This document shows, piece by piece, positions 11,025 through 42,387 of a DNA stretch of 64,000 nucleotides. The stretch spans positions 13,250 to 77,249 of the forward strand of contig CANJLD010000013.1 in assembly GCA_947475165.1 (NCBI GenBank). The letters are read 5' to 3'. The position numbers and the translations under genes are program-made. A model generated the notes under the pieces. The model saw only the letters and a list, made by a program, of their open reading frames with translations, did not search any database and was not told the DNA's origin. Positions within the stretch are counted from its first letter, which is position 1. Every line of letters starts with the position of its first letter. Origin of the DNA: Bacteroidota bacterium. Lineage in GTDB: Bacteria; Bacteroidota; Bacteroidia; Chitinophagales; LD1.

Positions 11025-11038
11025 ATAATTTGTGAGCG

Positions 11039-11046
11039 CAAATCTA
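11039..11046 (-). promoter_or_regulatory. candidate Bacteroidota -7 promoter box TAGATTTG upstream of sufB
   Basis: The minus strand reads ...GCGATTAGATTTGCGCTCACAAATTATATG. TAGATTTG fits the TAnnTTTG consensus. I found no clear -33 TTG at canonical spacing. Confidence 0.3.
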
Positions 11047-11061
11047 ATCGCTTTTTTTACA

Positions 11062-11080
11062 GTTTAGATAGCGTCTAAAC
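11062..11080. promoter_or_regulatory. perfect 7-bp-arm palindrome GTTTAGA-N5-TCTAAAC, candidate operator upstream of sufB
   Basis: Read directly from the sequence: agtttagatagcgtctaaac, 38-56 bp upstream of the sufB ATG. Confidence 0.25.
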
Positions 11081-11303
11081 AAAGATAAGCAGGATATTGT
11101 TTAGTAAAAATGCGAAAGACCTCTTCACAGATGGGCTTTCATTGGTGTTATAGTTCGCATGGGAACTTATACCTGAATGACAGTCAGTTATTTAACTGGC
11201 AGTTAAATAAGCTGCGCATCATCTTTCATAAATAGTTACCAATGCAGAGGTGAAAAAGTCGTTTGCAGGACTGACAAAATACAATGCAGCGTATTAAATG
11301 CGA

Positions 11304-11333
11304 TTAAACGCATAGGCGCATAGGGAACATAGG
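11304..11333. repeat. single copy of octamer-triplet element (CGCATAGG CGCATAGG GAACATAGG)
   Basis: ttaaacgcataggcgcatagggaacatagg is about 85 percent identical to one arm of the inverted repeat at 16280-16358. Confidence 0.6.
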
Positions 11334-11555
11334 TTAATTGAAAAGCCTGTTTGTTTGTAAGTTTGAGATGCCTGCGGAACTATGGAATAGTATGAAACAG
11401 CCAACGAAGTTCAGCCATGTGACAGGTTCCTGTCCGGCCGCAAGGCTAAATGAATGGGGCTTAAATGACGGCAACAGATTGTAAACCTAACTGATAAATA
11501 AGACGGCTTTTATAAAATGGTTGTTGGTGATAACACCAACAATAGCGAAAAATGA

Positions 11556-11592
11556 AATAAAAAAAACGCCCCGCAAAAAATGCGGGGCGTTT
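11556..11592 (-). terminator. rho-independent terminator after the 11634-11969 gene
   Basis: A 9-bp GC-rich stem (acgccccgc / gcggggcgt) has an A-run on the plus strand, which is a T-run on the minus strand. It sits 42 nt past the stop codon. Confidence 0.85.
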
Positions 11593-11633
11593 AAGAAAAC
11601 TCTATAGCTTAAACAAGCAATTGCAAAATGTAG

Positions 11634-11969
11634 TTACTCCTTTTTTGTTGGTTCGTCAATACTTGATTTCTCCACAGGTTTAGCTGGCGTTCCGCTCGCT
11701 TTTTGAGTACCTGCTGCTGGTACCGAACTGCTGGGTTTATTTGCCGGCTGTCGTACTGTCTTTGAATCGTATTGAGTAACCGCTGGCTTGGCAGCAGGGG
11801 CAGGGGTATTCGTGCTTACTGTTACGGGATTGCCGATGGTTACAGGAGGAGAAACGGCAGGATTCAACTTTTGAATTTCAGGCGAACGGTCGTCTACACG
11901 TGCCGTTTGCGCTGATGCGCTAATGCTGATGGCTGTGCCGATAAGAATGGTCATTATTATCTTTTTCAT
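11634..11969 (-). CDS. small secreted Pro/Ala/Thr-rich protein
   Basis: Signal peptide MKKIIMTILIGTAISISASAQ followed by low-complexity P/A/T/S-rich sequence. It is the last gene of a minus-strand operon. Confidence 0.65.
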   Translation of the reverse strand: MKKIIMTILIGTAISISASAQTARVDDRSPEIQKLNPAVSPPVTIGNPVTVSTNTPAPAAKPAVTQYDSKTVRQPANKPSSSVPAAGTQKASGTPAKPVEKSSIDEPTKKE

Positions 11970-12058
11970 GTTTCTGTTTTTTAAAGCGATGCAGCAACAT
12001 CTTTTACTGCTGCATCGCTATTATGAATAATTTTTTATTTCAATTAATAATCTAAATC

Positions 12059-13963
12059 TTAAGGTTCAGTAACCATAATCCAGCCATTCATCCAATCATT
12101 GCTGTTAATAGTATTTGCGCTGCTGTTACGAACACCAAAACCAATGGTATAAGTTCCTGCAGGAAGTGTAACAGACTCCGCTGCAGCCCAACCAATCCGT
12201 TGGGTTCCCATAACACCTTCCATATAGTTGCTTCCGGCAAAATGAGTTACTGTTCCCGCACCTAACTGATAGCACAAACCATAATCAAAAGAACCTCCTG
12301 CTACGGTAGAAGCCATTTGAGCAACTGCTGAGCCGGTAATTTTTTTGGTTGAAGTAAGTGTAACAGTAACCGTAGGACCTGCAAATACATACACAGAAGA
12401 ACTGGCGGCAATAGTGGAAACAAGGCCATTAAAAGCACTAATTGTTGGCGAAGGGTTTCCTTTCGATAAATTACCGTTAGCATCAATTGCTACAAAGGTT
12501 CCGGTTCCTGCTAAATTTTCCATTCGAACAGTTCCGTTGGTATGCAGCAAGGCAGTTGGGTCAACACCTCCAATACCCACAAAACCGGTAGCATCTTGTA
12601 TCACAAAGCGGCTTCCTCCGCCACCCAATTCAAATATTTCGTAATAATTATCAGCAGGGCGGTTGCGGGTATTCCACTGATTAACTCCTGCTTTTACAAA
12701 ACGTAAAGCAGCATCACCACTGCTGGCATCAATATCTACCACGCTGAAACTGGCTGTTGATTTTACTAAAAGTCCGGTAGCACCTCCGTGGTCAACCTCT
12801 AATTTATAAGCGGGTGTTACAGTACCTATTCCAACATTTGTTCCATCGTCAAAAATCTGGCTGCACGTTGCTGTAGTTCCATTTGATTTAAGAACTGTGT
12901 TGGCTGTTGCACAACCCACAGGGCCTGTTGCTCCCGTTGCACCGGTAACACCTGTGCCTGTTGCACCTGTTGCTCCAGCAACACCTGTGCCTGTTGCACC
13001 TGTTGCACCTGTTGCACCTGTTGCTCCAGCAACACCTGTGCCTGTTGCACCTGTTGCACCTGTTGCTCCAGCAACACCTGTGCCTGTTGCACCTGTTGCA
13101 CCTGTTGCTCCAGCAACACCTGCGCCTGTAGCTCCCGTTGCTCCGGTTGCGCCTGTAGCTCCGGTTGCACCTGTAGCACCACCGCCTGCTCCTGTTGCGC
13201 CTGTTGGGCCTGTAGCACCGGTTGCCCCTGTAGCACCACCGCCTGCACCTGTTGCACCTGTTGCGCCTGTTGCACCTGTTGTGCCTGCTCCTGTTGCTCC
13301 GGTTGCACCTATTGCGCCAGTTGCTCCGGTTGCACCTGTTGTGCCTGCACCTGTTGCACCAGTCGCTCCTATTGCGCCAGTTGCACCTTGAGGTCCGGTT
13401 GCGCCAGTTGCACCTTGAGGTCCGGTTGCTCCGGTTGGTCCGGCACCTGAACCTGTTGCACCTGTTGCGCCAGTCGCTCCTGTTGCACCTGTAGTTCCTG
13501 CTCCGGTTGCTCCGTCAGCACCCGTTGGTCCTTGTGGTCCTGTAGCTCCTGTTGCACCGGTTGCTCCTGCAGCCGAGTTAGCTGCGTATAAAGCGTAAGG
13601 CACACTTAACAATTGAGAAGTTCCCATATCTACAAAACCCGCAGATGCCACGTTGACTTCAACCTGTAAAAATTTAGCTCCGCTGCCCCAGTTAACTGTG
13701 CTAAGGTTGCCAACGCTGCCTATTTGCACGTTTACTAAACCAAACTGGTTAGCTGTAGTATTGATTGTTTCGGTAAATACGCTGGTACCTGTGGCAGTGC
13801 CATCGTGAATGGTAAAGCGTAAAGATACCGTTGTGTTGTTGGCTACGGCTGCTCCCGTATTGGTGCGAACTACCGCTTGATAGTTCATTTGTTGTGGCGC
13901 TTGTGCCCAAAGGGTTGTTGCAGTAAGCAGAACTGCAGCGGCCAGGAGTAATCTTTGTTTCAT
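12059..13963 (-). CDS. secreted protein with collagen-like Gly-X-Y (GAT)n region and globular N- and C-terminal domains
   Basis: Signal peptide [21 protein letters not shown]. About 215 aa are dominated by [10 protein letters not shown]-type triplets. The C-terminal domain contains [16 protein letters not shown], a motif seen in fibre-like proteins. Confidence 0.85.
12920..13570 (-). repeat. triplet-repeat DNA encoding the Gly-X-Y region, with internal 45-54 bp higher-order repeats
   Basis: Repeated cctgttgcacctgttgcacctgttgctccagcaacacctgtg blocks. The triplet repeat also generates spurious ORFs in other frames and on both strands. Confidence 0.85.
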
Positions 13964-13999
13964 GTGCTTATTTTTTAATTAGTGAATAAATTAAGAGGA

Positions 14000-14521
14000 T
14001 TAATTAATGATTTGAAATTTTTTAGAAACTGAATGAAGCTTGCCGTCTTTGTCGCTTACAAAGTTCATGGTAAGAATATACATTCCGGCTGCGTATAGCG
14101 AAACATTCAGTTGTTCTACTATTTTACCGCTATCGTAATTGGTATTGTATACATCCGAAATCTTCTGCCCTATGGCATTGTATAAAGTAATCTCAACTTT
14201 TCCTTCTTCCGGCAACAGGAAACCAAACCAAAGGTTGTCTACTGCGGGATTTGGATATACTACAAAGGAACCGAATTCATCCTTTGTCATATCTATTAGG
14301 CCGGTAATGTTATCGTTGGGTTGCTGAAAACCCTGGGTAAGAATGTTTCCGTTGGCCGAAAAGGTTTGCACCATAGTCATTTCGCCCACCGTGTATGAAA
14401 GACTGCCGTTTGCGTTTTGCGAATACCCACCGGTGCTGGCAATTACCGTTGGTGTTAGCATTTGGGCATTTGCTGCAAAAGCAAAAAACAGCATAAGCCA
14501 TGCGGTGTAGATTTTTTTCAT
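14000..14521 (-). CDS. small secreted protein with T9SS type-A C-terminal sorting domain
   Basis: The likely start is MKKIYTAWLMLFFAFAANAQ. The C-terminal region reads FVVYPNPAVDNLWFGF...GMYILTMNF...KKFQIIN. Its stop lies 36 bp upstream of the collagen-like gene. Confidence 0.8.
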   Translation of the reverse strand: MKKIYTAWLMLFFAFAANAQMLTPTVIASTGGYSQNANGSLSYTVGEMTMVQTFSANGNILTQGFQQPNDNITGLIDMTKDEFGSFVVYPNPAVDNLWFGFLLPEEGKVEITLYNAIGQKISDVYNTNYDSGKIVEQLNVSLYAAGMYILTMNFVSDKDGKLHSVSKKFQIIN

Positions 14522-14554
14522 GTGTATTGGTTTAGGTGGCAAGGTAAATAATAA

Positions 14555-14584
14555 ACGGAAAAAACAAGAAATTCCTTGTTTTTA
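14555..14584 (-). terminator. hairpin terminator (bidirectional shape) right after the DUF1353-like ORF
   Basis: aaaacaag-aaattc-cttgtttt, flanked by an A-run and a T-run. It starts 2 nt after the stop at 14586-14588. Confidence 0.6.
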
Positions 14585-14585
14585 T

Positions 14586-14801
14586 TTAAGCAGGAATTGT
14601 GGCACCGTCAAATCCTGTACCGGCAGGAACTTTCCACTGTTTACAGGACGGGACAATGTAGGCAAATTCATTTACAAGTTTCATTTTCCTGCCATCATCC
14701 AGCCACTCAGCAACTACTCTCCCAACAAACTTATCCTTTCGCTCAGGGCCAAATATGGCAACAGAAGAAAGCATTAATAACAGACCTGAAATTATTTTCA
14801 T
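14586..14801 (-). CDS. DUF1353-like N-terminal fragment (71 aa), probably a truncated gene
   Basis: The hydrophobic N-terminus and ...WKVPAGTGFDGATIPA match the DUF1353 core motif (vP.Gf.tDgaSiP), but the ORF stops immediately after the motif. Confidence 0.45.
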   Translation of the reverse strand: MKIISGLLLMLSSVAIFGPERKDKFVGRVVAEWLDDGRKMKLVNEFAYIVPSCKQWKVPAGTGFDGATIPA

Positions 14802-14904
14802 GTTTAGTATGTTTTGTTCTTCAGGTTAGTGCTGGTGTGGTGGGATAAGACCAACAAAGCCGAAAAATAAAATTTTGTTTTTTAATTAAGGCACAAGAAC
14901 CTGC

Positions 14905-15402
14905 CTAGCGGCACGCAGGCGCATGGCTAAATTGCCGGGCTGCATTCTTGCGCCAATTGCTTTTTGCGTTGCAAACGCTTTTGTAATCGCATCCTCGTTT
15001 CAAACGAGGACGAGCAGGGGTTGTATAATCGTTATGTTCCGGTAAATCATTGTTATGATTTATTGTGTTATAGTTATGATGTGCCAAATCATAACTATGT
15101 TTTGTTGTTTCATGGTTATGATGAGTTGTATAATCGTTATGTTGGGGTAAATCATATTTATGATTCATCGTGTAATGGTTATGATGCGCCAAATCATAAC
15201 TATGTTTAGTTGTATCATGGTTATGATGCGTTGTATAATGGTTATGTTGCGGTAAATCATAGTTATGATTTATGGTGCAATGGTTATGATGCGTCAAATC
15301 ATAACTATGTTTTGCTGTATCATGGTTATGATGCGTTGTATAATGGTTATGATGCGAAAAATAATTGCAATTATTTTTCGTGACATAACAATTATTTGGC
15401 AA
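14905..15402 (-). CDS. histidine-rich tandem-repeat protein (35-aa unit, HHNH / KHSYDL motifs)
   Basis: The 165-aa ORF spans the whole 105-bp repeat array. Of 21 inter-unit substitutions, 13 are at codon position 3, 7 at position 1 and 1 at position 2. I saw no signal peptide and recognise no homologue. Confidence 0.55.
   Translation of the reverse strand: MPNNCYVTKNNCNYFSHHNHYTTHHNHDTAKHSYDLTHHNHCTINHNYDLPQHNHYTTHHNHDTTKHSYDLAHHNHYTMNHKYDLPQHNDYTTHHNHETTKHSYDLAHHNYNTINHNNDLPEHNDYTTPARPRLKRGCDYKSVCNAKSNWRKNAARQFSHAPACR
15021..15351. repeat. 105-bp tandem repeat, about 3.1 copies
   Basis: Units start at 15021, 15126 and 15231, with a partial unit at 15336. Adjacent full units differ at 12 and 9 positions. 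Confidence 0.9.
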
Positions 15403-15418
15403 ATAATGGTCATTCCGC

Positions 15419-15496
15419 AGGGCAGAGTAGGAGGAAAGGGGCTGGTTTTGAGGGAAAAACGGAGAAAAAGGGGAGAATTGCGGAAAGAGGCAAGGG
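15419..15496. other. polypurine (plus strand) / polypyrimidine tract with quasi-mirror symmetry
   Basis: agggcagagtaggaggaaaggggctggttttgagggaaaaacggagaaaaaggggagaattgcggaaagaggcaaggg lies between the T9SS gene stop and the His-rich ORF start. Confidence 0.6.
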
Positions 15497-15497
15497 C

Positions 15498-16256
15498 TTA
15501 TTGCTTAACCACCCGGAAATACTTTGCGGAAGGTTGAGTTTGCAGTTTCAGAAAATAAACACCGGCAGGAACATCGCTCAGATTAATAGAAGAACCGGAA
15601 ACAAAATCTGTTTTAATAAGTGAACCGGTGAGACTGTGCAGGGTAAAGGGCGTGTTTTGTAGCGGATAACTCAAGTTCAGTTGCCGGGCTACTGGGTTAG
15701 GGTATACGATGAGCGCATCGCCCGAAATATCGCTTACACCGGTAAGCGTATTGCAGGTCTGCGAATGCGCATTCCAGTATTGCATAAAACTGTTGTAGGC
15801 CATTTTCCAAACCTGAAGTTCCTGCGGCACAAACGAGCCGCCCGAAATACGCCCGTAAAGTGTATCGTTTGCAAAACGAAGTTCGGGTGTAAAACCAAAA
15901 TTATAGGTGCGCACATAATCGCCAATTACCTGCCAGGGTTGGCTTACCGAATCCACCGGTGTTAAAGCCGCCAGCAAAGTATCGCCAATCTGCCCCATAT
16001 ATTCTGCCGACTGCGACACCGGTCCGTTGCAATCAAAATCGGTTCCGTTCCAAATGGTTATAGTGTCGCGGCTTTCGGTTCCTTTAATTACATCTAACAC
16101 CTGAAACCGTCTGCCATGCTGCACAGAGTCTATCATTACGCACCGCACCACCGTGCCATAGTTTTGCGAGAACTCGCAGAACGAACTAAACACAATAGAG
16201 CAGGAGTAGCCATAAGCTGAAGAGAGCAAGAGGAGAAAAGCGAGGAGTTTTTTCAT
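15498..16256 (-). CDS. secreted protein of unknown function with T9SS type-A C-terminal sorting domain
   Basis: The likely start is MKKLLAFLLLLSSAYG at 16256 (ORF track 16304). The C-terminus reads LIVYPNPVARQLNLSY...GVYFLKLQTQPSAKYFRVVKQ. Confidence 0.8.
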   Translation of the reverse strand: MKKLLAFLLLLSSAYGYSCSIVFSSFCEFSQNYGTVVRCVMIDSVQHGRRFQVLDVIKGTESRDTITIWNGTDFDCNGPVSQSAEYMGQIGDTLLAALTPVDSVSQPWQVIGDYVRTYNFGFTPELRFANDTLYGRISGGSFVPQELQVWKMAYNSFMQYWNAHSQTCNTLTGVSDISGDALIVYPNPVARQLNLSYPLQNTPFTLHSLTGSLIKTDFVSGSSINLSDVPAGVYFLKLQTQPSAKYFRVVKQ

Positions 16257-16279
16257 GGTGGCTAATTTAGGGAAATGCA

Positions 16280-16358
16280 TTAAACACATAGGCACATAGG
16301 TCACATAAGTGTAAAAGAATTTCTCTTTTTATGTGTTCTATGTGCCTATGTGTTTTAA
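16280..16358. repeat. long imperfect inverted repeat built from CACATAGG octamer triplets (about 29-bp arms, 20-nt loop)
   Basis: ttaaacacataggcacataggtcacataa ... ttatgtgttctatgtgcctatgtgttttaa, with about 27 of 29 positions complementary. It lies between the Rrf2 gene stop and the next gene start. Confidence 0.8.
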
Positions 16359-16361
16359 AAT

Positions 16362-16802
16362 CTATTTACGGTATCGTTTCAATTTCTTCTCTTTCTCCAG
16401 CAACACCGAAAAAGTATTATCCTTTAAAGTGGCAACCGTCTGCTCGCGTATTACTCGGAACACTTCGCGGATGGGGCAGGTAATTTCATCTACACATTCT
16501 TCGCAGGGCTCGTAATATTTATGCGCTACACAAGGCACAAGCGCAATAGCCCCATCAAATAGACGCATTACTTCTGCCATGTTTATTTTATCGGCAGGTT
16601 TAAGCAGATAATAGCCGCCACCCTTTCCTTTTTTGCTGCCGAGGTAACCGGCTTTGCGCAGTTCGAGCAGAATGGCTTCGAGAAACTTTTTGGGAATGTT
16701 TTCTTCGGTCGAAATCTCTTCAATCAGCACCGGTTCACCGGTTTTCTTTTTGGCAAGGTAGATGAGTGCCTTAATAGCATACTTCGATTTCTTGGTAATC
16801 AT
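16362..16802 (-). CDS. Rrf2 family transcriptional regulator with four-Cys cluster
   Basis: N-terminal wHTH signature MITKKSKYAIKALIYLA and a Cys pattern CX8CX2CX5C (PCVAHKYYEPCEECVDEITC). It is divergent from the TSUP gene. Confidence 0.85.
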   Translation of the reverse strand: MITKKSKYAIKALIYLAKKKTGEPVLIEEISTEENIPKKFLEAILLELRKAGYLGSKKGKGGGYYLLKPADKINMAEVMRLFDGAIALVPCVAHKYYEPCEECVDEITCPIREVFRVIREQTVATLKDNTFSVLLEKEKKLKRYRK

Positions 16803-32829: not shown

Positions 32830-35800
32830 ATGAGAAATTTTACAAAACTCCTGACACCCTTTTTTGTTTTTGTTCTTTCAGTATTGAGTGGAAATGTTTT
32901 CGCTCAGGTACCCGGCAATGATTTAATCTGCAACGCAACTGTTCTTTCAGTAGGGCTTAGTTGCACGCAAGGTACTAACCTAAACTCAACTGCCACCGGT
33001 AGCCCCGCAGTAGCAACTTGCTGGAATCCGGCATCCTCTAATAATGATGTGTGGTATAGCTTTGTGGCTACTACTGTTAACATGACGGTAAGTACAGACT
33101 TTTCAGGGTTAACACTCAACAACACACAAATTGCTGTATACAGTTCTTCCACTAATAACTGCACCGGTACACTTACCTTAGTTGGTTGCGGTGAAAACGG
33201 TGGAACTAACGTAACCAATAACTCTATTACAGATATGAGTTTAGTTCCCGGAAATACCTACTTTATACGTGTAGATGGAAACGGAACAGCAACAGGTACT
33301 TTTTGCGTAAGTATATATGACACTTACACTCCAGGCTCAACTCCTTGCGAAGCGCAAATTGTAAACGCTAATAACCTTACCTGCTCAAATACAAACGGTA
33401 ATCAGGCAAATAACAATACCAATCCGGCCGCTTCTTACCCGGTTATTGGTTCTGATTATGGTGGTTGCGATAATGAGACCAATCAAGTGGGAACTTGGGC
33501 AACGTTTACTCCGAATAGCGCAAGTGTTACGCTCACTAATCAAAGCGGTGGTGCTCGTGACTATACACTATTTGGTGGAACCTGTGATAATTTAAGTTGG
33601 ATTAGCTGCACATCAGTAGCAAATAATGCTACTACGCAATTTCCTAATTTAACTTTAGGTGGAACTTATTTCATACTAACTACTGTTCAAGCAAGTGCTA
33701 CTACTACCAATGTAAATACAAATTTTTGCTTAACAAACACTGTTCCTTGCACTCCGCCTACAAATAATACTTGTGCAACTGCACTGGCAGTAACTGCAAA
33801 CGTGCCTTATAGTGTAACTAACTATTGTGCAACAGCTGATCAACCGCCTGCATTATGTTCAGGTACACTTCAAAACAATATCTGGTTTAACTGGACTACT
33901 CCTGCTAACTGGACTGGTCAGGCCTTTTTCCAATTGTTTCAGGAGAATTGTAGCGATGGAGCAAACTCTCAGGGAATGCAATGTTCTGTTTATACTGCCG
34001 GTGTGGTTTGTGGAAGCACAGCTAACTGTGTTGCTACTTCTAATACCATTACAGATAATAACGTAAATATAGTTTGGACACCTGTGCCCGGTGCCACTTA
34101 CCTGATTAACTATGATGGTTACTCAGGTGAAGTATGTTATATGAATTTTCAAATTACCAATACCGCTTCGGTAGTAGTGGTATCGGTTAACTCTGCAACT
34201 ATTTGCGCAGGCGATTCAGTAGTGCTTACTGCAACCAGTAATGCTACCGGTTATACCTGGTCAACCGGTCAAACAGGAAGTTCAATAACTGTTAGTCCTT
34301 CAACTACCACATCTTACTCTGTTTCTGCAACTGCCGGTGGAACCGGTTCTGCAATTTCAACAGTAACGGTGAATCCTATTCCCGCCTCACCAACAGCAGG
34401 AAGTAATACACCGGTATGTGAAGGTGCATCTTTAAATTTAACGGCAACCAATATTACTAATGCTGATTACAGTTGGACCGGACCAAACGGATTTACTTCA
34501 AACCAACAGAATCCATCAATTCCGAATGTTTCGCCAGCTGCAGCTGGAACTTATGAAGTGACTGCCACGGTACTTAACTGCGCTAATCATCCCGCAACTA
34601 CCACAGTAGTTATAAATCCTGTACCGGCTGCACCAACTGCAGGAAGTAACAGCCCTGTTTGTACCGGTGGCACTATAGATTTAACAGCCACCAGTAACAC
34701 ATTGAACACTGATTACAGTTGGACAGGTCCAAACGGATTTACATCGAATTTGCAAAATCCCTCTATTCCAAATTCTACTGCTGCTAATTCAGGCACTTAT
34801 TCTGTAACTACCTCTGTATTGGGTTGTGTTAGTGCTGCATCTTCTACAGTTGTAACTGTAAGCCAAACACCTGCCGCACCGGTTGCAGGAAGTAATAGTC
34901 CAATTTGCGAAGGTTCAAACCTCAATCTATTTGTAGGTACCGTTGCCGGTGCCACTTATAGCTGGACTGGCCCTAATGGATTTACCTCGAACTTACAAAA
35001 CCCTTCTGTGCCAGGCGCAACTGCAAGCGATGCCGGAGTGTATGAAGTAGTGGCGGTAATTTCTGGTTGCTCAAGTAATACCGGTACCACAACTGTAGTG
35101 GTTAACGCTATACCCGCTGCACCTGTTGTTGGAAGCAATTCGCCAGTTTGCGAAGGGGAAACAATTAACTTAACGGTTTCAACTATTCAAGGTGCAACAT
35201 ATGCTTGGACAGGGCCAAACGGGTTTACTTCTAACCTTCAAAACCCTTCTATTCCAAATGCACAGGATGTAGCATCGGGCACCTATTCATTGGTTGCAAC
35301 TTTAGCAGGCTGTAGCAGCGACCCGGGAACAACTCTGGTATTGGTGAATAAAATCCCGGCACCACTTGCATCGAGCAACAGCCCGATATGCGCGGGTGCA
35401 ACTTTAAATTTAACTTCAACCACTTTTGGAAACGCAACATATACATGGTCGGGACCAAACGGATTCACATCTAACTTGCAAAACGCTTCCATTCCAAATG
35501 CAGATGTTAATGCATCAGGAACTTATTCAGTAACCGTATCATCAAATGGATGCACCAGCACTTCTGCCGGAACGGTAACAGTTGTAGTAAATGTAACATC
35601 ACCACCGGTGGCATCTAATAGCGGACCAATTTGTTCCGGTGCTACTTTAAACTTAGCAGCAACTACTATCACAGGTGCCACTTATAGCTGGACAGGACCA
35701 AACGGTTTTGCCTCAACTTTGCAAAACCCATCTATTATTAATGCCACCACTGCTGCCTCAGGAACATACTCAGTAACAGCAAACGTAAGCGGATGTAACA

Positions 35801-38800
35801 GCAGCAGTCCGGCTACCACTACAGCGGTTGTTAATCCAATACCTGCAATTATAGCGGGAAGTAATAGCCCTATATGTGCGGGCTCTGCTTTAAATTTAAC
35901 AGCAACCACTTTTGCTGGAGCATCTTATAGCTGGACTGGTCCAAACGGATTTGCATCAAATCAGCAAAACCCTTCTATACCAAACGCAACACCGGCAGCA
36001 TCCGGAACATATTCAGTAAACGCAACTGCTACCGGTTGTAGTAGTTCTTCACCTTCAACAACTGTAGTAACTGTAAATGCTATACCTGCCACACCAACAG
36101 CCGGAAGCAACAGTCCTATCTGCGAAGGAACAACGTTAAACTTAACAGCAAGCACAATAGCGAATGCTACTTATAGCTGGACAGGTCCTGCTGGTTTTAC
36201 TTCTGCTTTGCAAAACCCTTCTATTCCAAATTCTACTTTAGCCAACTCCGGAGTTTATTCAGTTAAGGTTTCTATCAATGGTTGTAATAGTGCTACTGTC
36301 ACAACCAATGTGATTGTTCATCCAATACCGGCATCGCCTACTGCTGCAAGCAATAGCCCTGTATGCGAAACTTTAACTATCAACTTAACAGCTACTACCG
36401 TAGCCGGTGCAACTTACAGTTGGACAGGACCAAACGGTTATACATCTTCTTTACAAAATCCATCTATTAGTAATGCGACACTTAATGATGCTGGAGTATA
36501 TGGTGTTGCTGCTACAATAAGCGGTTGCACAAGCCCTGCCTCTTCTACTACAGTTGTAGTTACTCCGCTACCACCGGCTCCTATTGCAACAAGCAACAGT
36601 CCGGTTTGCGTAGGCGATACTTTGTTATTATTCGCCAGCTTTATTCAGGATGCCACTTACTTATGGACAGACCCGATTGGGTTTACATCTACTGAGCAAA
36701 ATCCGGTAGTGCCAAACGTTACTCTTTTAGCTGCGGCTACTTATACAGTAGTTGCTACGGTAAATGGATGCACAGGACCTGGCTCACAAACAACTGTAGT
36801 TATCGTGCCTCGCCCCGATGCATCGTTTACTTCTACTGCACCGGTTTGTTTCGGAACACCGGTAGATTTCAATAACACCGGAAGCACTGGTAACGGGGTT
36901 ACTTTTTCATGGGATTTTGGTCCGGATGCTACACCAAGTGCATCTACTTTAGAAAACCCAACAGGTATTGTATACGCCACAGCAGGAACAAAAACAGTTA
37001 CTTTCACTATCGATAATGGTGCCTGCGCAACTTCGGTTACTCAAACTATAACTGTAACTGTAACTGGTTTACCATTTGCAGATTTCGCTAACGATGGTCC
37101 GGCATGTGCTGCGCCAGGCGATATTACATTTACCGATGCCAGCACCGGTAATGTAACTTCATGGTTATGGGATTTCGGTCCAAATGCCACACCTGTAACC
37201 TCTACAAGCGGAGGACCTGTAACCGTAACTTTCTTAACTACTGGAACACATTCAGTAATGCTTACTGTAACCGGTGGCGGCTGCTCAAACACTACTACCA
37301 AAACGGTAGATGTAGGCGTAGTAGGAGCGGACTTTACTTCTTCAGTTTCTCAAAATGGTGATGATGGATGTTTAGGTCAGGGAGTTAACTTCTATAATAT
37401 AGGAAGCTCTGGCAGCGGTGCTACACACTTCTGGAATTTTGGAGCAGGTGCCACACCAGCAACTTCTACCGATGAAAATCCTGCCGGCATTATATATGGC
37501 AGTACCGGAGCTAAAATTGTAACCCATACCGTTACAGTTGGTGCCTGCGGCACGAACGCTACTATCCAACACATTATTACTATCAACCCAATTCCGGTCA
37601 CTTCCTTTACTTCTACTGCACCGGTTTGTGCCAATACAGCTATTGACTTTACCAATACCGGAAGCACAGGAGTTAATTATTCCTTCTTCTGGGATTTTGG
37701 TGCCAACGCTTCGCCATCAACTTCAATTGCTGAAAATCCGGCAGGAGTAACTTATAGTGCGTCAGGAACAAAAACTGTTACGCTTTCTATTACTAACGAA
37801 TTCTATTGTGTTGTTCAGGCAACGCAGAGTATTATTATCAATTCAACACCCACAGCTTCGTTCTCTACCAATACACCGCAATGCACTTTGTTACCTGTTG
37901 ATTTTACGAATACAGGAACTGCAACAGGTGTAACATGGGCATGGGATTTCGGAATAGATGCATTACCTGTTTCATCAACAGTTCAAAACCCAACCGGTGT
38001 AACTTATGCTATACCTGGAATTAAAGTAGTTACTTTAACTACTACTGACGGAGCATCGGGTTGCACTGCAACAGCTACTAATTCAATTACTATTAACATG
38101 ACCCCATATGCATCGTTTACTACGAATGCACCGCAGTGTTCTAATGTTGGATTTGACTTTACTAATACCGGAAGCACCGGTGGCAGTTGGGCATATACCT
38201 GGAACTTTGGTTTAGGAGCTAACCCTGCAATATCATCAGCAGAAAATCCTGCCGGTGTATTGTATGGTTCAGCAGGAACTAAAACAGTAACATTTACTGT
38301 TTCAGGACAAGGTTGCACACAAACAAGTACACAGACTATTGTGGTAGATCAGGCACCAACCGCAGGCTTTACTTCTACAGCACCGCAATGTTCGGGTGCA
38401 GGAGTTGACTTTACTATTACAGGAACAAGTTCCGGTGTGAGTTACGCATGGGATTTGGGCGCAGGAGCAACACCTGCTACCAGCACCGACCAAAACCCAA
38501 CGGGAGTAGTTTATTCTACTGCGGGAACTAAAACAGTAACCTTAGTAACTACAAATACCAATACTGGATGCATTGCAACGGCAACGGCAACTATTAATAT
38601 CAACCAAGCACCTACAGCAACATTTACTTCAAACGCCCCTCAGTGTTCTACCGTTCCTATTGACTTTACTAATACAGGAAGCACCGGTGGCAGTTGGTCG
38701 TATGCATGGAGTTTTGGAACGGGTGCAAATCCACCAAGCTCTTCTGCTGAAAACCCAGGCGGTATAGTTTATAGTTCATCAGGAACAAAAACTGTATCGT

Positions 38801-41800
38801 TCACAATTTCAGGAAATGGTTGTACCCAAACAAGCACTCAATCCATTACTATAAATGCAACACCGGTTTCGAGCTTTATTTCCAATGCACCACAATGCAC
38901 CGGCTTGCCGGTTAACTTCGGAAACACCGGAACAACAAGCGGAGTAGCATGGTCGTGGGATTTTGGCTCAGGTGCAACTCCTCCAACTTCAACTGTCCAA
39001 CATCCTCAAGGTGTTGTTTATGCAACTTCCGGATTGAAAGGAGTATCGCTTACGGTTACAGATACTTCTAGCGGATGTTCAGTTACAACTACTAACACTT
39101 TCAATATTTACGAATCGCCAACTGCCACATTTACTTCTAATGCACCGCAGTGTTCTACTGTGCCTATCGACTTTACAAACACAGGCAGTACAGGAAGCAA
39201 CTGGTCTTACGCATGGAACTTAGGCCAGGGAGCTATTCCTGCTTTCTCTTCTGCAGAAAACCCGGGTGGTGTTATTTACAGTTCCTCTGGAACTAAGACA
39301 ATAACGTTTACCATTTCTGATCAACATTGCACAAGCACCAGCACTCAGTCAATTGTTATTAATGCTACACCTACCGCAAGCTTCGTATCTACAACACCGC
39401 AATGCACGGGTCTTCCGGTTGATTTCGGAAATACAGGCACAGGTACGGGAGTAACATGGGCTTGGAATTTTGGTAATGCTGCCACACCAGCTACCTCAAC
39501 CGACCAGCACCCTACCGGAGTTGTTTATTCTGCAGGCGGATTAAAAGGAGTTACTTTAACTACCACCGATACAACAAGCGGATGCTCGGTAACCGTGTTC
39601 AATACCTTTACTATTTATGAATCACCGGTGGCAACATTTACATCTAATGCACCACAATGTTCAACGGTTGGTATTAACTTTACTAATACGGGAAGCACAG
39701 GAAGCAACTGGTCGTATTCATGGAATTTGGGGCAGGATGCAAATCCAATTTTCTCTTCAGCAGAAAACCCTTCAGGTGTCATGTATGCTTCATCTGGAAC
39801 CAAGACAGTAACCTTTACTATTTCAGATCAGCATTGCACGCAAACGGCTACCCAAAGTATTGTCATCAATGCTACACCAACAGCTGTGTTTACTTCCACC
39901 GCGCCACAATGCACTGGCCTTGCAGTTGATTATACTAACACAGGCACTACTAATAATGTAGCATGGACATGGAACTTAGGTGCAGGAGCAACACCGGCAA
40001 CAAGCACAGACCAAAATCCGGCAGGAGTGGTTTATGCAACTTCTGGAACTAAAACAATTACACTTACGGCAACCGATACTACTTCGGGATGTTCGGTAAC
40101 CACTTCAAATACCATAACGATTCATCAAACACCTACGGCTACATTCACTTCGAATGCACCGCAGTGTTCAACGGTGGGTATTAACTTTACCAACACTGGT
40201 AGCACCGGTGGTAACTGGTCTTACTCATGGAACTTAGGTCAGAATGCTATACCGGCAGTATCATCAGCAGAAAATCCAACAGGTGTAATGTACAGCACCG
40301 CGGGAACTAAAACGGTAACATTTACTATTGCCGACCAGCATTGCACACAAACATCTACACAATCAATCACTATACAACCTACACCTACTGTAGGATTTAC
40401 CTCAACAGCACCACAGTGCACAGGCTTACCTATTGATTTCACCAACACAGGAACCAATACCGGTGTAACTTGGGGATGGACTTTTGGCGCAGGCTCAACA
40501 CCGGCTACCAGCACAGATGAAAACCCCACAGGTGTTGTTTATGAAACTGCAGGAACCAAGAATGTTACGCTTACCACAACAGATGTAGGCTCGGGATGCT
40601 CGGTAACCGTTACCACTACCATCAATATTCACCAAACACCTACCGCCAGCTTTACTTCTAATGCTCCGCAGTGTGCGGGCGTGGGAATCGACTTTACCAA
40701 TACCGGCAGCAATGGTGGTAACTGGTCTTATTCATGGAACTTCGGACCGGGTGCTTCACCGGCTACTTCCTCAGGACAAAACCCTACAGGTATCTTTTAT
40801 ACATCTTCGGGAACCAAAACAGTAACCTTTACTGTTTCAGACCAAAACTGTACGCAGACTTCTACTCAAACAATTACTATTAACGAAACACCGGTGGCTA
40901 ACTTTACATCCACCGCACCGCAGTGCACCGGCCTACCGGTTAACTTTGCTAATACAGGTACCGCTACAGGCGTAAGCTGGGCGTGGAGTTTTGGTGGAGG
41001 GGCATCACCGGCAACCGATATAGTTGAAAATCCATCGGGAGTTGTTTATGCAACTGCGGGAATTAAAACAGTAACTTTTACCATTACTAATATCGCTACT
41101 TCTTGTGCGGTTACGGCTACTTCTACTATCAATATTTATCAAACGCCTACTGCTACGTTTACATCCACCGCACCGCAATGTGCTCGTACACCAATTAACT
41201 TTACCAATACCGGAACATCGGGTGGTAACTGGTCTTTTGATTGGGATTTGGGAACAGATGCCACACCATCTACTTCGGTATCTGAAAACCCAAGCGGAGT
41301 CTTATACAATTCGTCAGGAACCAAAACGGTTACGTTCACTATTTCTGATGCTAACTGTACGCAAACATCTACCCAAACCATTAATGTCAATCCGTTACCT
41401 TATGCAGAAGCAGGTGCAGATACTACAATCTGCGCTAACCGCGATGTAGTATTGGGCAGCGACTCAACCACAGCAGGCAATACTTACAACTGGTTCCCAT
41501 CCAACACGCTTAACAATCCGTTTTCACAAAATCCTATTGCAAGCCCTACAGCTTCGGTTACAACTTATAGCGTAACTGTAACAGCAGCAGGAACCGGTTG
41601 CCAAAATTCAGACTTTGTAACTATCACCATGCTTGACCCGCTTAGTGCCGATGCCGGACCGGATGTAGAAATTTGTTTGAACGATAGCGTGCAGATTGGT
41701 GCCGGATTTATTGAAGGGCAGTTCTACAAATGGGCTCCTGCAAATGGGCTTAACGATGTAACAACAAGCAACCCGATTGCAAGTCCAACTCAAACCACTA

Positions 41801-42387
41801 CTTACACATTGGTAGTAACTGATACAGTAGGCTGCGACCCAATAACGGATAACGTAACCATCACCGTTCACGCATTGCCGAGTGCAAATGCAGGAGTGGA
41901 TGATACCATTTCGCAAGGCGCATCAATACAATTAATTGGAACTGGTGGCTTGCAATATTACTGGACACCAACTACAGGATTGAGCAACGCCAACTTGTTT
42001 AACCCGGTGGCAAGTCCTGACAGCACTACCAATTATGTATTAATCGTAACCGATTTATTCGGTTGCCAAAACACAGATACTGTGCTTATTACAGTAATTG
42101 ATTTCGAAGTGCCTTACTGGATTCCTTCAACATTTACACCAGACGGAAACGGACACAACGATGTATTGTATGTGAGGGGAGGAGGCTTCCTAACGTTTGA
42201 GTTTTCTATTTACAACCGGTATGGCGAACTACTATTCCTTACTAAGAACATTGCCGAAGGATGGGATGGTAACAGCAGGCTATCCGGTGACGATACACCA
42301 CCCGATGCCTATGTTTGGAAAGTTACCGGAGTGCTGAATAATGGAACTAAGGTAGATGCGAAAGGTTTAGTTAATCTGGTTAAATAA
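32830..42387 (+). CDS. giant (3185 aa) cell-surface adhesin-like protein with T9SS type-B (gliding-motility CHU_C-type) C-terminal domain
   Basis: Signal peptide, Cys-containing N-terminal domains, 10 Ig-like modules with W-x-GPNGF-x-S-x-x-QNP, 18 PKD modules, and 3 pre-CTD modules. The C-terminus reads PSTFTPDGNGHNDVLYVRGGG...YNRYGELLF...GWDG...YVWKV. Confidence 0.92.
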   Translation: MRNFTKLLTPFFVFVLSVLSGNVFAQVPGNDLICNATVLSVGLSCTQGTNLNSTATGSPAVATCWNPASSNNDVWYSFVATTVNMTVSTDFSGLTLNNTQIAVYSSSTNNCTGTLTLVGCGENGGTNVTNNSITDMSLVPGNTYFIRVDGNGTATGTFCVSIYDTYTPGSTPCEAQIVNANNLTCSNTNGNQANNNTNPAASYPVIGSDYGGCDNETNQVGTWATFTPNSASVTLTNQSGGARDYTLFGGTCDNLSWISCTSVANNATTQFPNLTLGGTYFILTTVQASATTTNVNTNFCLTNTVPCTPPTNNTCATALAVTANVPYSVTNYCATADQPPALCSGTLQNNIWFNWTTPANWTGQAFFQLFQENCSDGANSQGMQCSVYTAGVVCGSTANCVATSNTITDNNVNIVWTPVPGATYLINYDGYSGEVCYMNFQITNTASVVVVSVNSATICAGDSVVLTATSNATGYTWSTGQTGSSITVSPSTTTSYSVSATAGGTGSAISTVTVNPIPASPTAGSNTPVCEGASLNLTATNITNADYSWTGPNGFTSNQQNPSIPNVSPAAAGTYEVTATVLNCANHPATTTVVINPVPAAPTAGSNSPVCTGGTIDLTATSNTLNTDYSWTGPNGFTSNLQNPSIPNSTAANSGTYSVTTSVLGCVSAASSTVVTVSQTPAAPVAGSNSPICEGSNLNLFVGTVAGATYSWTGPNGFTSNLQNPSVPGATASDAGVYEVVAVISGCSSNTGTTTVVVNAIPAAPVVGSNSPVCEGETINLTVSTIQGATYAWTGPNGFTSNLQNPSIPNAQDVASGTYSLVATLAGCSSDPGTTLVLVNKIPAPLASSNSPICAGATLNLTSTTFGNATYTWSGPNGFTSNLQNASIPNADVNASGTYSVTVSSNGCTSTSAGTVTVVVNVTSPPVASNSGPICSGATLNLAATTITGATYSWTGPNGFASTLQNPSIINATTAASGTYSVTANVSGCNSSSPATTTAVVNPIPAIIAGSNSPICAGSALNLTATTFAGASYSWTGPNGFASNQQNPSIPNATPAASGTYSVNATATGCSSSSPSTTVVTVNAIPATPTAGSNSPICEGTTLNLTASTIANATYSWTGPAGFTSALQNPSIPNSTLANSGVYSVKVSINGCNSATVTTNVIVHPIPASPTAASNSPVCETLTINLTATTVAGATYSWTGPNGYTSSLQNPSISNATLNDAGVYGVAATISGCTSPASSTTVVVTPLPPAPIATSNSPVCVGDTLLLFASFIQDATYLWTDPIGFTSTEQNPVVPNVTLLAAATYTVVATVNGCTGPGSQTTVVIVPRPDASFTSTAPVCFGTPVDFNNTGSTGNGVTFSWDFGPDATPSASTLENPTGIVYATAGTKTVTFTIDNGACATSVTQTITVTVTGLPFADFANDGPACAAPGDITFTDASTGNVTSWLWDFGPNATPVTSTSGGPVTVTFLTTGTHSVMLTVTGGGCSNTTTKTVDVGVVGADFTSSVSQNGDDGCLGQGVNFYNIGSSGSGATHFWNFGAGATPATSTDENPAGIIYGSTGAKIVTHTVTVGACGTNATIQHIITINPIPVTSFTSTAPVCANTAIDFTNTGSTGVNYSFFWDFGANASPSTSIAENPAGVTYSASGTKTVTLSITNEFYCVVQATQSIIINSTPTASFSTNTPQCTLLPVDFTNTGTATGVTWAWDFGIDALPVSSTVQNPTGVTYAIPGIKVVTLTTTDGASGCTATATNSITINMTPYASFTTNAPQCSNVGFDFTNTGSTGGSWAYTWNFGLGANPAISSAENPAGVLYGSAGTKTVTFTVSGQGCTQTSTQTIVVDQAPTAGFTSTAPQCSGAGVDFTITGTSSGVSYAWDLGAGATPATSTDQNPTGVVYSTAGTKTVTLVTTNTNTGCIATATATININQAPTATFTSNAPQCSTVPIDFTNTGSTGGSWSYAWSFGTGANPPSSSAENPGGIVYSSSGTKTVSFTISGNGCTQTSTQSITINATPVSSFISNAPQCTGLPVNFGNTGTTSGVAWSWDFGSGATPPTSTVQHPQGVVYATSGLKGVSLTVTDTSSGCSVTTTNTFNIYESPTATFTSNAPQCSTVPIDFTNTGSTGSNWSYAWNLGQGAIPAFSSAENPGGVIYSSSGTKTITFTISDQHCTSTSTQSIVINATPTASFVSTTPQCTGLPVDFGNTGTGTGVTWAWNFGNAATPATSTDQHPTGVVYSAGGLKGVTLTTTDTTSGCSVTVFNTFTIYESPVATFTSNAPQCSTVGINFTNTGSTGSNWSYSWNLGQDANPIFSSAENPSGVMYASSGTKTVTFTISDQHCTQTATQSIVINATPTAVFTSTAPQCTGLAVDYTNTGTTNNVAWTWNLGAGATPATSTDQNPAGVVYATSGTKTITLTATDTTSGCSVTTSNTITIHQTPTATFTSNAPQCSTVGINFTNTGSTGGNWSYSWNLGQNAIPAVSSAENPTGVMYSTAGTKTVTFTIADQHCTQTSTQSITIQPTPTVGFTSTAPQCTGLPIDFTNTGTNTGVTWGWTFGAGSTPATSTDENPTGVVYETAGTKNVTLTTTDVGSGCSVTVTTTINIHQTPTASFTSNAPQCAGVGIDFTNTGSNGGNWSYSWNFGPGASPATSSGQNPTGIFYTSSGTKTVTFTVSDQNCTQTSTQTITINETPVANFTSTAPQCTGLPVNFANTGTATGVSWAWSFGGGASPATDIVENPSGVVYATAGIKTVTFTITNIATSCAVTATSTINIYQTPTATFTSTAPQCARTPINFTNTGTSGGNWSFDWDLGTDATPSTSVSENPSGVLYNSSGTKTVTFTISDANCTQTSTQTINVNPLPYAEAGADTTICANRDVVLGSDSTTAGNTYNWFPSNTLNNPFSQNPIASPTASVTTYSVTVTAAGTGCQNSDFVTITMLDPLSADAGPDVEICLNDSVQIGAGFIEGQFYKWAPANGLNDVTTSNPIASPTQTTTYTLVVTDTVGCDPITDNVTITVHALPSANAGVDDTISQGASIQLIGTGGLQYYWTPTTGLSNANLFNPVASPDSTTNYVLIVTDLFGCQNTDTVLITVIDFEVPYWIPSTFTPDGNGHNDVLYVRGGGFLTFEFSIYNRYGELLFLTKNIAEGWDGNSRLSGDDTPPDAYVWKVTGVLNNGTKVDAKGLVNLVK
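34381..36810 (+). repeat. 10 tandem ~243-bp (81-aa) Ig-like modules
   Basis: Each module contains Cxx(A/T)xLxL, (Y/L)(S/T/A/L)W(T/S)(G/D)P(N/A/I)G(F/Y) and QN(P/A)(S/V), ending in VVxxxP. Confidence 0.85.
36811..41397 (+). repeat. 18 tandem ~255-bp (85-aa) PKD modules; the last 14 alternate between two subtypes
   Basis: Subtype 1 reads FTSTAPQCTGLPVDFTNTGT..GVTWAWxFG...SGCSVT. Subtype 2 reads FTSNAPQCSTVxIxFTNTGSTGGNWSYSWNxG...SDQHCTQTSTQ. Confidence 0.85.

Follow-up and report, generated by a model that had tools for sequence, protein, structure and literature searches.

The window, by which is meant the whole 64-kb stretch of DNA that was analysed, carries on its minus strand a tandem array (15019..15354) of 16 in-register 21-nt subunits, equal to 3.2 higher-order units of 105 bp. 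The array was delimited with TRF and by listing its units. TRF returned a 105-bp period with 3.2 copies, 90% matches and zero indels at 15020-15356, together with sub-periods of 21, 42 and 63 bp. Each 105-bp unit comprised five 21-bp (7-codon) subunits, which translate on the minus strand as xHNxYTT (type a), HHNHDTT (b), KHSYDLA (c), HHNHYTI/M (d) and NHxxDLP (e). The core of every 21-nt subunit was an invariant 5-nt CATA(A/G), giving phased direct repeats of the length known from iterons (~17-22 bp). The 21- and 105-bp periods recurred in L015, a metagenome contig carrying the orthologous locus with neighbours identical in kind to those of the window, and fell within the range of head-to-tail minisatellite units (~10-100+ bp). 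Within the 64-kb window the array motif was found only at this array, which is referred to as copy A.

Open reading frame and gene calls

Copy A lies inside a 165-codon ORF with a TTG start (14905..15402, minus strand), which was taken from the ORF listing and which the omega and codon tests given below indicate to be probably incidental. Its translation contains 31 His, 25 Asn, 18 Thr, 14 Tyr and 11 Asp, and its C-terminal tail is basic with 3 Cys. A previous sequence-only reading of this DNA had described a His-rich repeat ORF with a basic 3-Cys tail, a 105-bp unit repeated ~3.1 times at 15021-15351 and a frame open on the minus strand only; the composition was accurate, the repeat agreed with TRF and the frame was correctly identified. 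In every allele the His frame contained its terminal stop only, with 3-5 stops in three of the other frames and 21-37 in the remaining two. It was open in all eight alleles examined, and 1-2-nt indels were found in no unit. When random 105-nt units were repeated in tandem, 40-52% had one or more frames free of stops, compared with two in the real unit, so the open frame is weak evidence here. Preservation of the frame is automatic because the period is 21 nt.

Upstream of the TTG the His frame stays open for 34 more codons, with no start codon among them, and the first ATG of the ORF is codon 79. The 87-aa sub-ORF beginning at this ATG (14905..15168, minus strand) is the annotated gene in public assemblies, among them MAG GCA_947480525.1, of which a 261-kb contig matches the window; just this C-terminal part of the 165-aa ORF was called there. 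A 90-aa ORF on the plus strand (15265-15537), also called as a gene in public assemblies, was rejected as spurious since it runs over the 3' end of the T9SS gene. Antisense coding was rejected because the in-register antisense frame has a stop in each 105-bp unit (TTA read as TAA). AlphaFold, run on the single sequence of the His ORF, predicted no fold (pLDDT 37), which is weak evidence.

Ends of the array

At its left end the array is bordered by a 47-nt flank (15355..15401, minus strand; TGCCAAAT..GTTATGTCACGAAAAATAATTGCAATTATTT...), which was common to all three loci at which the array was found when the junctions in the window, L015, L009 and L016 were compared. Homology between the loci starts at exactly 15401 (TGCCAAAT...). 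From its sequence the flank looks like two decayed units. A 31-nt core of the flank was invariant in 4 alleles, with the neighbouring nucleotides varying at 6/17 positions (Fisher P = 0.001); this invariance may reflect function or simply recent common ancestry. An inverted-repeat search identified a 56-bp imperfect palindrome at 15340..15395 (28-nt arms, 86% complementary, no spacer), which covers the left flank and the first array unit inside the putative N-terminus and is the dominant hairpin in the RNA fold. An inverted copy of the left end was sought downstream of the array and none was found.

The right end of copy A is an a-unit followed by a 37-codon 3' tail (14905..15018, minus strand; PARPRLKRGCDYKS...ACR*), which contains three hairpins (fold z = -2.2) and was 100% identical in L015, L009 and L010. 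The glnN-linked copy (copy B) lacks this tail and ends inside a c-unit (...KHSYDL|GSLG*), only 4 codons further on. Because copy B ends in this way, the basic Cys tail is regarded as locus-specific and outside the repeat family.

Neighbouring genes

Copy A is surrounded by T9SS cargo genes, a DUF1353 fragment and a collagen-like gene, with the Rrf2 and suf genes lying outside the block of inserted DNA described below. The junction comparison placed a 95-nt, almost pure polypyrimidine spacer (15403..15497, minus strand) between the stop of the T9SS 252-aa gene and the array. This spacer was 98% conserved in L015 and belongs to copy A only, being found in neither copy B nor copy C.

Beyond the 3' tail, a 71-aa DUF1353 fragment (14586..14801, minus strand) gave a Pfam match below the cut-off, over profile positions 1-31 of 91. 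It has a signal-peptide-like N-terminus. Against L015 its omega was 3.3, with 11/12 nucleotide differences changing the amino acid, and on this sequence comparison it is probably a decaying gene remnant. Another contig (L033, positions 1-156) matches the window at 100% identity downstream of 14709, a position within the 71-aa ORF, and is unrelated upstream, making 14709 a further breakpoint in the array-adjacent spacer.

The collagen-like gene is a 634-aa ORF of GAT/GPT triplets (12059-13963, minus strand) with very high local GC (0.6). In one assembly its repeat region has another length and the gene called is one of 286 aa only (L008/L031), pointing to a second repeat in the island that is either copy-number-variable or assembly-unstable. 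The motif CATAGG-N2-CATAGG occurs 3 times in 64 kb (16282-16355 and 11311-11324), against 0.11 expected. Two of the copies are the arms of a hairpin with 27-nt arms between the Rrf2 regulator and T9SS 252-aa genes and the third lies ~290 nt upstream of sufB; from this placement the motif is a candidate operator for the Rrf2-family regulator, which would control the suf operon. The window also contains a 3185-aa ORF at 32830-42387 (plus strand).

Copies at three loci

The DNA upstream of junction 15401 occurs in three unrelated versions. In copy A (window, L015) it is the polypyrimidine spacer after the T9SS 252-aa gene, in copy B (seen in L009 and L010) it is the glnN intergenic region, and in copy C (L016) it is a terminator-like hairpin after a GH5-like T9SS 434-aa gene. 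The array therefore has the shared unit and the several dispersed loci with unrelated flanks that characterise minisatellites. Copy B was confirmed as a genuine second locus on long contigs that were reached via the GlnN protein. Its 47-nt left flank and its unit types are those of copy A, and its neighbours are glnN and orphan genes; regions A and B have flank and array in common and nothing else. Copies A and B were found in the same metagenome sample, and we infer that all three loci are carried by one genome.

Each of the three contexts supplies an in-frame start upstream before any stop. In copy A this is the TTG at the junction, the sole start of this copy, which was created by the junction and is followed 7 nt downstream by a hairpin with a 28-bp stem. 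Copy B has an ATG 28 codons upstream, in locus-specific DNA, and copy C an ATG 25 codons upstream. At locus B the whole ORF is called by gene callers, as 131 aa (11.9 units) or 166 aa (16.9 units). GC-rich hairpins (CCCCCGC-TGG-CGGGGG; GTCACGCGC...GCGCGAC) were noted in the glnN intergenic region (L036 4700-5000 / L009 2250-2420); they are REP-like or terminator-like and fall within what would be the N-terminal coding part of copy B.

Copy number was polymorphic, as in minisatellites, with 11.9 versus 16.9 units at locus B. Alleles of locus A had 16 units each and differed in unit content. Indels between alleles involved whole 21- or 105-bp blocks only. Two independent ENA k141 contigs (L009 and L010), with 15 and 20 units, were compared with window 14170-15215 and with L036/L037. 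Each proved to be an exact hybrid, with B on its 5' side and A on its 3' side; the switch falls in an identical crossover zone of 46 nt, and both contigs end at window 14170. They were accordingly ruled out as representing a strain with a different upstream context, and are either real ectopic recombinants or recurrent assembler chimeras.

Homology searches and sister lineages

HMMER was run against 1.84 billion protein representatives, and the 87-aa protein of this locus itself (P0001) was the only true match. Sixteen further weak matches were returned, and 11/11 of those inspected were unrelated low-complexity repeats. A word-index protein search also gave no homologue; as it missed even the 87-aa protein itself it is a weak negative, and the HMMER result was preferred for that reason. 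The His ORF had no match in Pfam, NCBIfam or the PDB, and no similarity to a described His-rich metal-binding family was found. Protein patterns and the left-end 21-mer were searched in 185,579 species genomes without finding a relative. The 21-mer had 13 matches in GTDB genomes, all of them chance AT-rich matches; the sole phylogenetically plausible one, in a Saprospiraceae MAG (L020), showed no array on inspection. The array was not found in viral, plasmid or phage collections. An Rfam scan of 14000-16500 (E <= 1) gave only meaningless miRNA-precursor matches caused by the hairpins. The sequence-only reading had recognised no homologue and no adjacent metal-handling genes and had proposed an HMM search. 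The first statement survived that search, and the second applies at both loci, since no genes for metal uptake, metal regulation or metalloenzyme maturation are linked to copy A or copy B. Genes for Rep, ParB, recombinases and transposases were likewise sought near copies A and B and none was found.

Homologues of the GlnN linked to copy B belong, where named, to Chitinophagales MAGs, which points to an uncultured Chitinophagales bacterium as the carrier of the array. The array was sought upstream of glnN in relatives with GlnN 95-96% identical and was absent. In one relative with a 96%-identical GlnN, a phage-integrase-family (tyrosine recombinase) gene lies ~2.8 kb upstream of glnN (L041 1-227), which makes this upstream region a possible hot spot for integration. 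In a relative with an orthologue of the T9SS 252-aa gene (58% identity), sufB comes next, 57 nt on. Because sufB follows directly there, the whole block at 11025-15497 appears from this comparison to have been inserted in this lineage specifically, the array lying at one of its edges. Besides the array, the block comprises the DUF1353 fragment, a T9SS 180-aa gene, the collagen-like gene and a 111-aa ORF. Copies A and B each lie at an end of DNA that is missing from relatives. As the arrays are absent from sister lineages, a recent origin is indicated rather than the decay of an old sequence.

Substitution pattern and selection

Adjacent 105-bp units differed at codon positions 1, 2 and 3 by 7, 1 and 15 substitutions, respectively; the earlier hand count of 7, 1 and 13 was nearly right. 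Purifying selection had been argued from the third-position bias, and a metal-binding or storage protein suggested from the composition. The first argument, and with it the case for a real metal-binding protein, did not survive the counts. Among 22 changed codons, 14 changes were nonsynonymous and 8 synonymous, and third-position changes were often themselves nonsynonymous (N>K, D>E, H>Q, I>M). His was not conserved, and the two full-length paralogues share no start or C-terminus.

Between the window and L015 the His ORF showed 24 nucleotide differences, of which 19 were nonsynonymous and 5 synonymous. Omega was estimated by the Nei-Gojobori method and was 0.81 for the His ORF against 0.05-0.19 for the flanking T9SS252, Rrf2, TauE and FAD oxidoreductase genes. 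The split of synonymous and nonsynonymous differences fitted neutrality (P = 0.6), and an omega of 0.15 was rejected (P = 1.6e-4).

Variants were then pooled from 69 subunits of five alleles, giving 33 distinct variants, 24 nonsynonymous and 9 synonymous. Pooled omega was 0.55-0.94, a range set by the assumed transition bias, and was not different from 1. About one stop-creating variant was expected among the 33 and none was observed (P(none) = 0.25-0.43); with so low an expectation the lack of stops is uninformative. At His codons ~7 nonsynonymous variants against 1 synonymous matched the neutral expectation of 8:1, and the purifying selection on His that would mark a His-rich metal-binding protein was not detected. 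The His codons were CAT in 31/31 cases, compared with 53% CAT in 29 genes of the window (P = 5e-9, with copies non-independent).

Second codon positions were depleted, holding 2/33 distinct variants (chi-square P = 0.003), or 1/17 (P = 0.047) once possible inter-unit conversions were removed. The nAn triplet pattern was kept, and on translation H, N, D, Y, Q, K and E swapped freely. Adenines were the least variable bases in the array. Conservation within the unit had a period of 3 and showed no dyad-symmetric blocks. The third-position excess of the sequence-only reading was confirmed, its argument for purifying selection was not, and the depletion at second positions is the one coding-like feature left. 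Because second positions are depleted, a codon-level constraint may be acting or may have acted in the past. This depletion is not predicted by a neutral non-coding satellite, and the only explanations we can offer are past coding, present selection on composition, or non-independence of the variants.

Interpretation

The reading towards which we lean, with modest confidence and from sequence comparisons, is that the His-rich 'gene' is an interspersed young minisatellite with an incidental ORF and not a conserved metal-binding gene. Copy A would then be, at about the same level of confidence, one member of a young, lineage-restricted and MIRU-like interspersed VNTR family. The incidental nature of the ORF is argued by the near-neutral omega, the unconserved His, the exclusive use of CAT, the absence of a shared start, promoter or C-terminus and the ragged 3' ends; the lack of homologues, the recent origin and the decaying neighbour point the same way. 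The comparisons show that a 21-bp unit rich in CAT and AAC has been amplified and built into a 105-bp higher-order repeat, that whole 21- or 105-bp blocks are gained and lost, and that the array and its decayed 47-nt left edge lie at three or more loci of one population. Expansion would proceed by replication slippage or unequal recombination, as the allele differences suggest. CAT, AAC, TAT and GAT would then be read as His, Asn, Tyr and Asp. With a period that is a multiple of 3 and a unit that is stop-free in one frame, the array can be read as one long ORF, which would be a by-product rather than a gene selected for metal binding. If the element has an effect, this would be exerted at the level of DNA or RNA. 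It could act as a hairpin-rich, phased and probably bent spacer in a string of co-directional genes, or as a substrate for ectopic recombination between loci.

A possible but doubtful alternative is that the arrays are translated as a very young orphan family of at least three paralogues, putative disordered proteins of His/Asn/Tyr/Asp heptad repeats. Selection would act on composition (polar xAx codons) and not on residue identity, and by analogy the proteins could buffer or bind divalent metals. This alternative stays alive because second positions are depleted, with H, N, D, Y, Q, K and E exchanging freely, because the frame is uninterrupted at every locus and in every allele, and because an in-frame start lies upstream in each context. 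Indels are all of whole units, although the 21-nt period preserves the frame automatically. A precedent exists in Hpn and Hpn-2, small, lineage-restricted, His-rich nickel-binding paralogues of gastric Helicobacter (PMC4671568). Against translation stand an omega of ~0.8 with His not conserved, His codons that are exclusively CAT, paralogues without a common promoter, start or C-terminus (copy A having its TTG only), the lack of metal-handling neighbours at A or B and the lack of a predicted fold. More tentative still is the full scenario in which the minisatellite recently gave birth to a translated His/Asn/Tyr/Asp heptad-repeat family at three or more loci, with the second position held as adenine, starts borrowed from upstream DNA and possibly a metal-buffering role.

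It is unlikely that the array is instead a functional DNA element, in which CATAAC-type cores two helical turns apart would be bound cooperatively by a putative protein and would mark the edges of islands. Iteron, centromere or operator arrays, or the arm-type sites of recombinases, could serve as models. The 21-bp phasing with an invariant 5-nt core per unit fits this proposal, as do the 56-bp palindrome, which is an inverted repeat of the array motif, and the precise left boundary common to three contexts. The position of copies A and B at the ends of DNA that relatives lack and the tyrosine recombinase gene near the glnN site of a relative would also agree with it. The 31-nt invariant flank adds to these, but a recent common ancestor of the copies would account for it just as well. 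The right ends lack precision and are not alike from copy to copy, conservation has period 3 and is not dyad-symmetric, plasmid, phage and viral collections gave no match, and no Rep, ParB, recombinase or transposase gene lies near A or B. The adjacent binding-protein gene on a replicon or mobile element that accompanies iteron and centromere arrays was thus found at neither locus.

That the array is the relic of a formerly coding repeat gene, with a codon-like pattern inherited from a translated past and broken by the rearrangements that also truncated the DUF1353 gene, would account for second-position depletion alongside a near-neutral omega, for the 71-aa remnant with its omega of 3.3 and for a rearrangement-prone region with an extra breakpoint at 14709 in L033, but is very improbable given that the databases searched held no intact parent gene or homologue and that sister lineages lack the arrays.

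Several known classes were rejected. The units are contiguous without spacers, unlike a CRISPR array. The adenines are the least variable bases, the opposite of mutagenesis in the target of a diversity-generating retroelement. On inspection the GTT...AAC boxes were in the wrong order for the R''/R' sites of an integron attC, and no integrase is present. A his-type leader or attenuator would be far shorter than this ORF, which has no amino-acid biosynthesis genes downstream. A MITE or IS-type element was rejected since the left boundary alone is shared, the right ends lie in different unit types and there is no inverted copy of the left end.

Several practical consequences follow. If a repeat has a period divisible by three and its substitutions show a third-position excess, it can mimic a selected gene, and synonymous and nonsynonymous counts together with a comparison of paralogues are needed before such a repeat is called a gene. 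The array is a potential VNTR marker, and a potential cause of contig breaks and chimeras when metagenomes containing this freshwater-type Chitinophagales lineage are assembled. If it is translated, it would represent a rare bacterial gene birth from a tandem repeat and a new lineage-specific family of His-rich proteins.

Comparison with known systems

Pneumococcal BOX elements (boxA-boxB(n)-boxC) have two defined ends and are present in over 100 copies per genome. The array resembles them in being modular and intergenic, in varying in how many tandem internal modules it contains, in having one terminal module that is defined and in its strong predicted hairpins. It differs from BOX in that its left end alone is defined and its right end is ragged.

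Iteron and centromere arrays, as in plasmid origins and F sopC, consist of ~20-bp helically phased direct repeats with internal dyad symmetry and a terminal inverted repeat. The array shares the ~20-bp phasing, the internal dyad symmetry and the end inverted repeat of the same motif. Unlike those systems it has no cognate protein gene and no plasmid or phage context, and it has 12-20 copies and codon-like conservation.

With Hpn and Hpn-2 (PMC4671568) the His ORF has in common its small size, an extreme His content, restriction to one lineage and the existence of paralogues. Their sequences are not similar, and here the His positions are unconserved and no metal context is present. Unlike in Hpn and Hpn-2, the His content here comes from a recently amplified CAT-rich DNA repeat.

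The likeness to MIRUs is by analogy one of the same kind and not of the same family, and searches of genome, plasmid and phage collections with this element gave no relative. MIRUs are interspersed, polymorphic between strains and located mainly between genes, in spacers presumed to be part of polycistronic transcripts (PMC3635867). The array differs from them in its two-level 21/105-bp structure, palindromic subunits and conserved decayed left edge, in its long ORF (131-166 aa), in having only 3 known loci and in occurring in the phylum Bacteroidota. Small ORFs are reportedly also contained in MIRUs, as is said of work by Supply et al. in 1997. Like MIRU-VNTR loci, the array consists of tandem units of tens of bp at dispersed loci with strain-variable copy number, and copy A lies within a string of co-directional genes.
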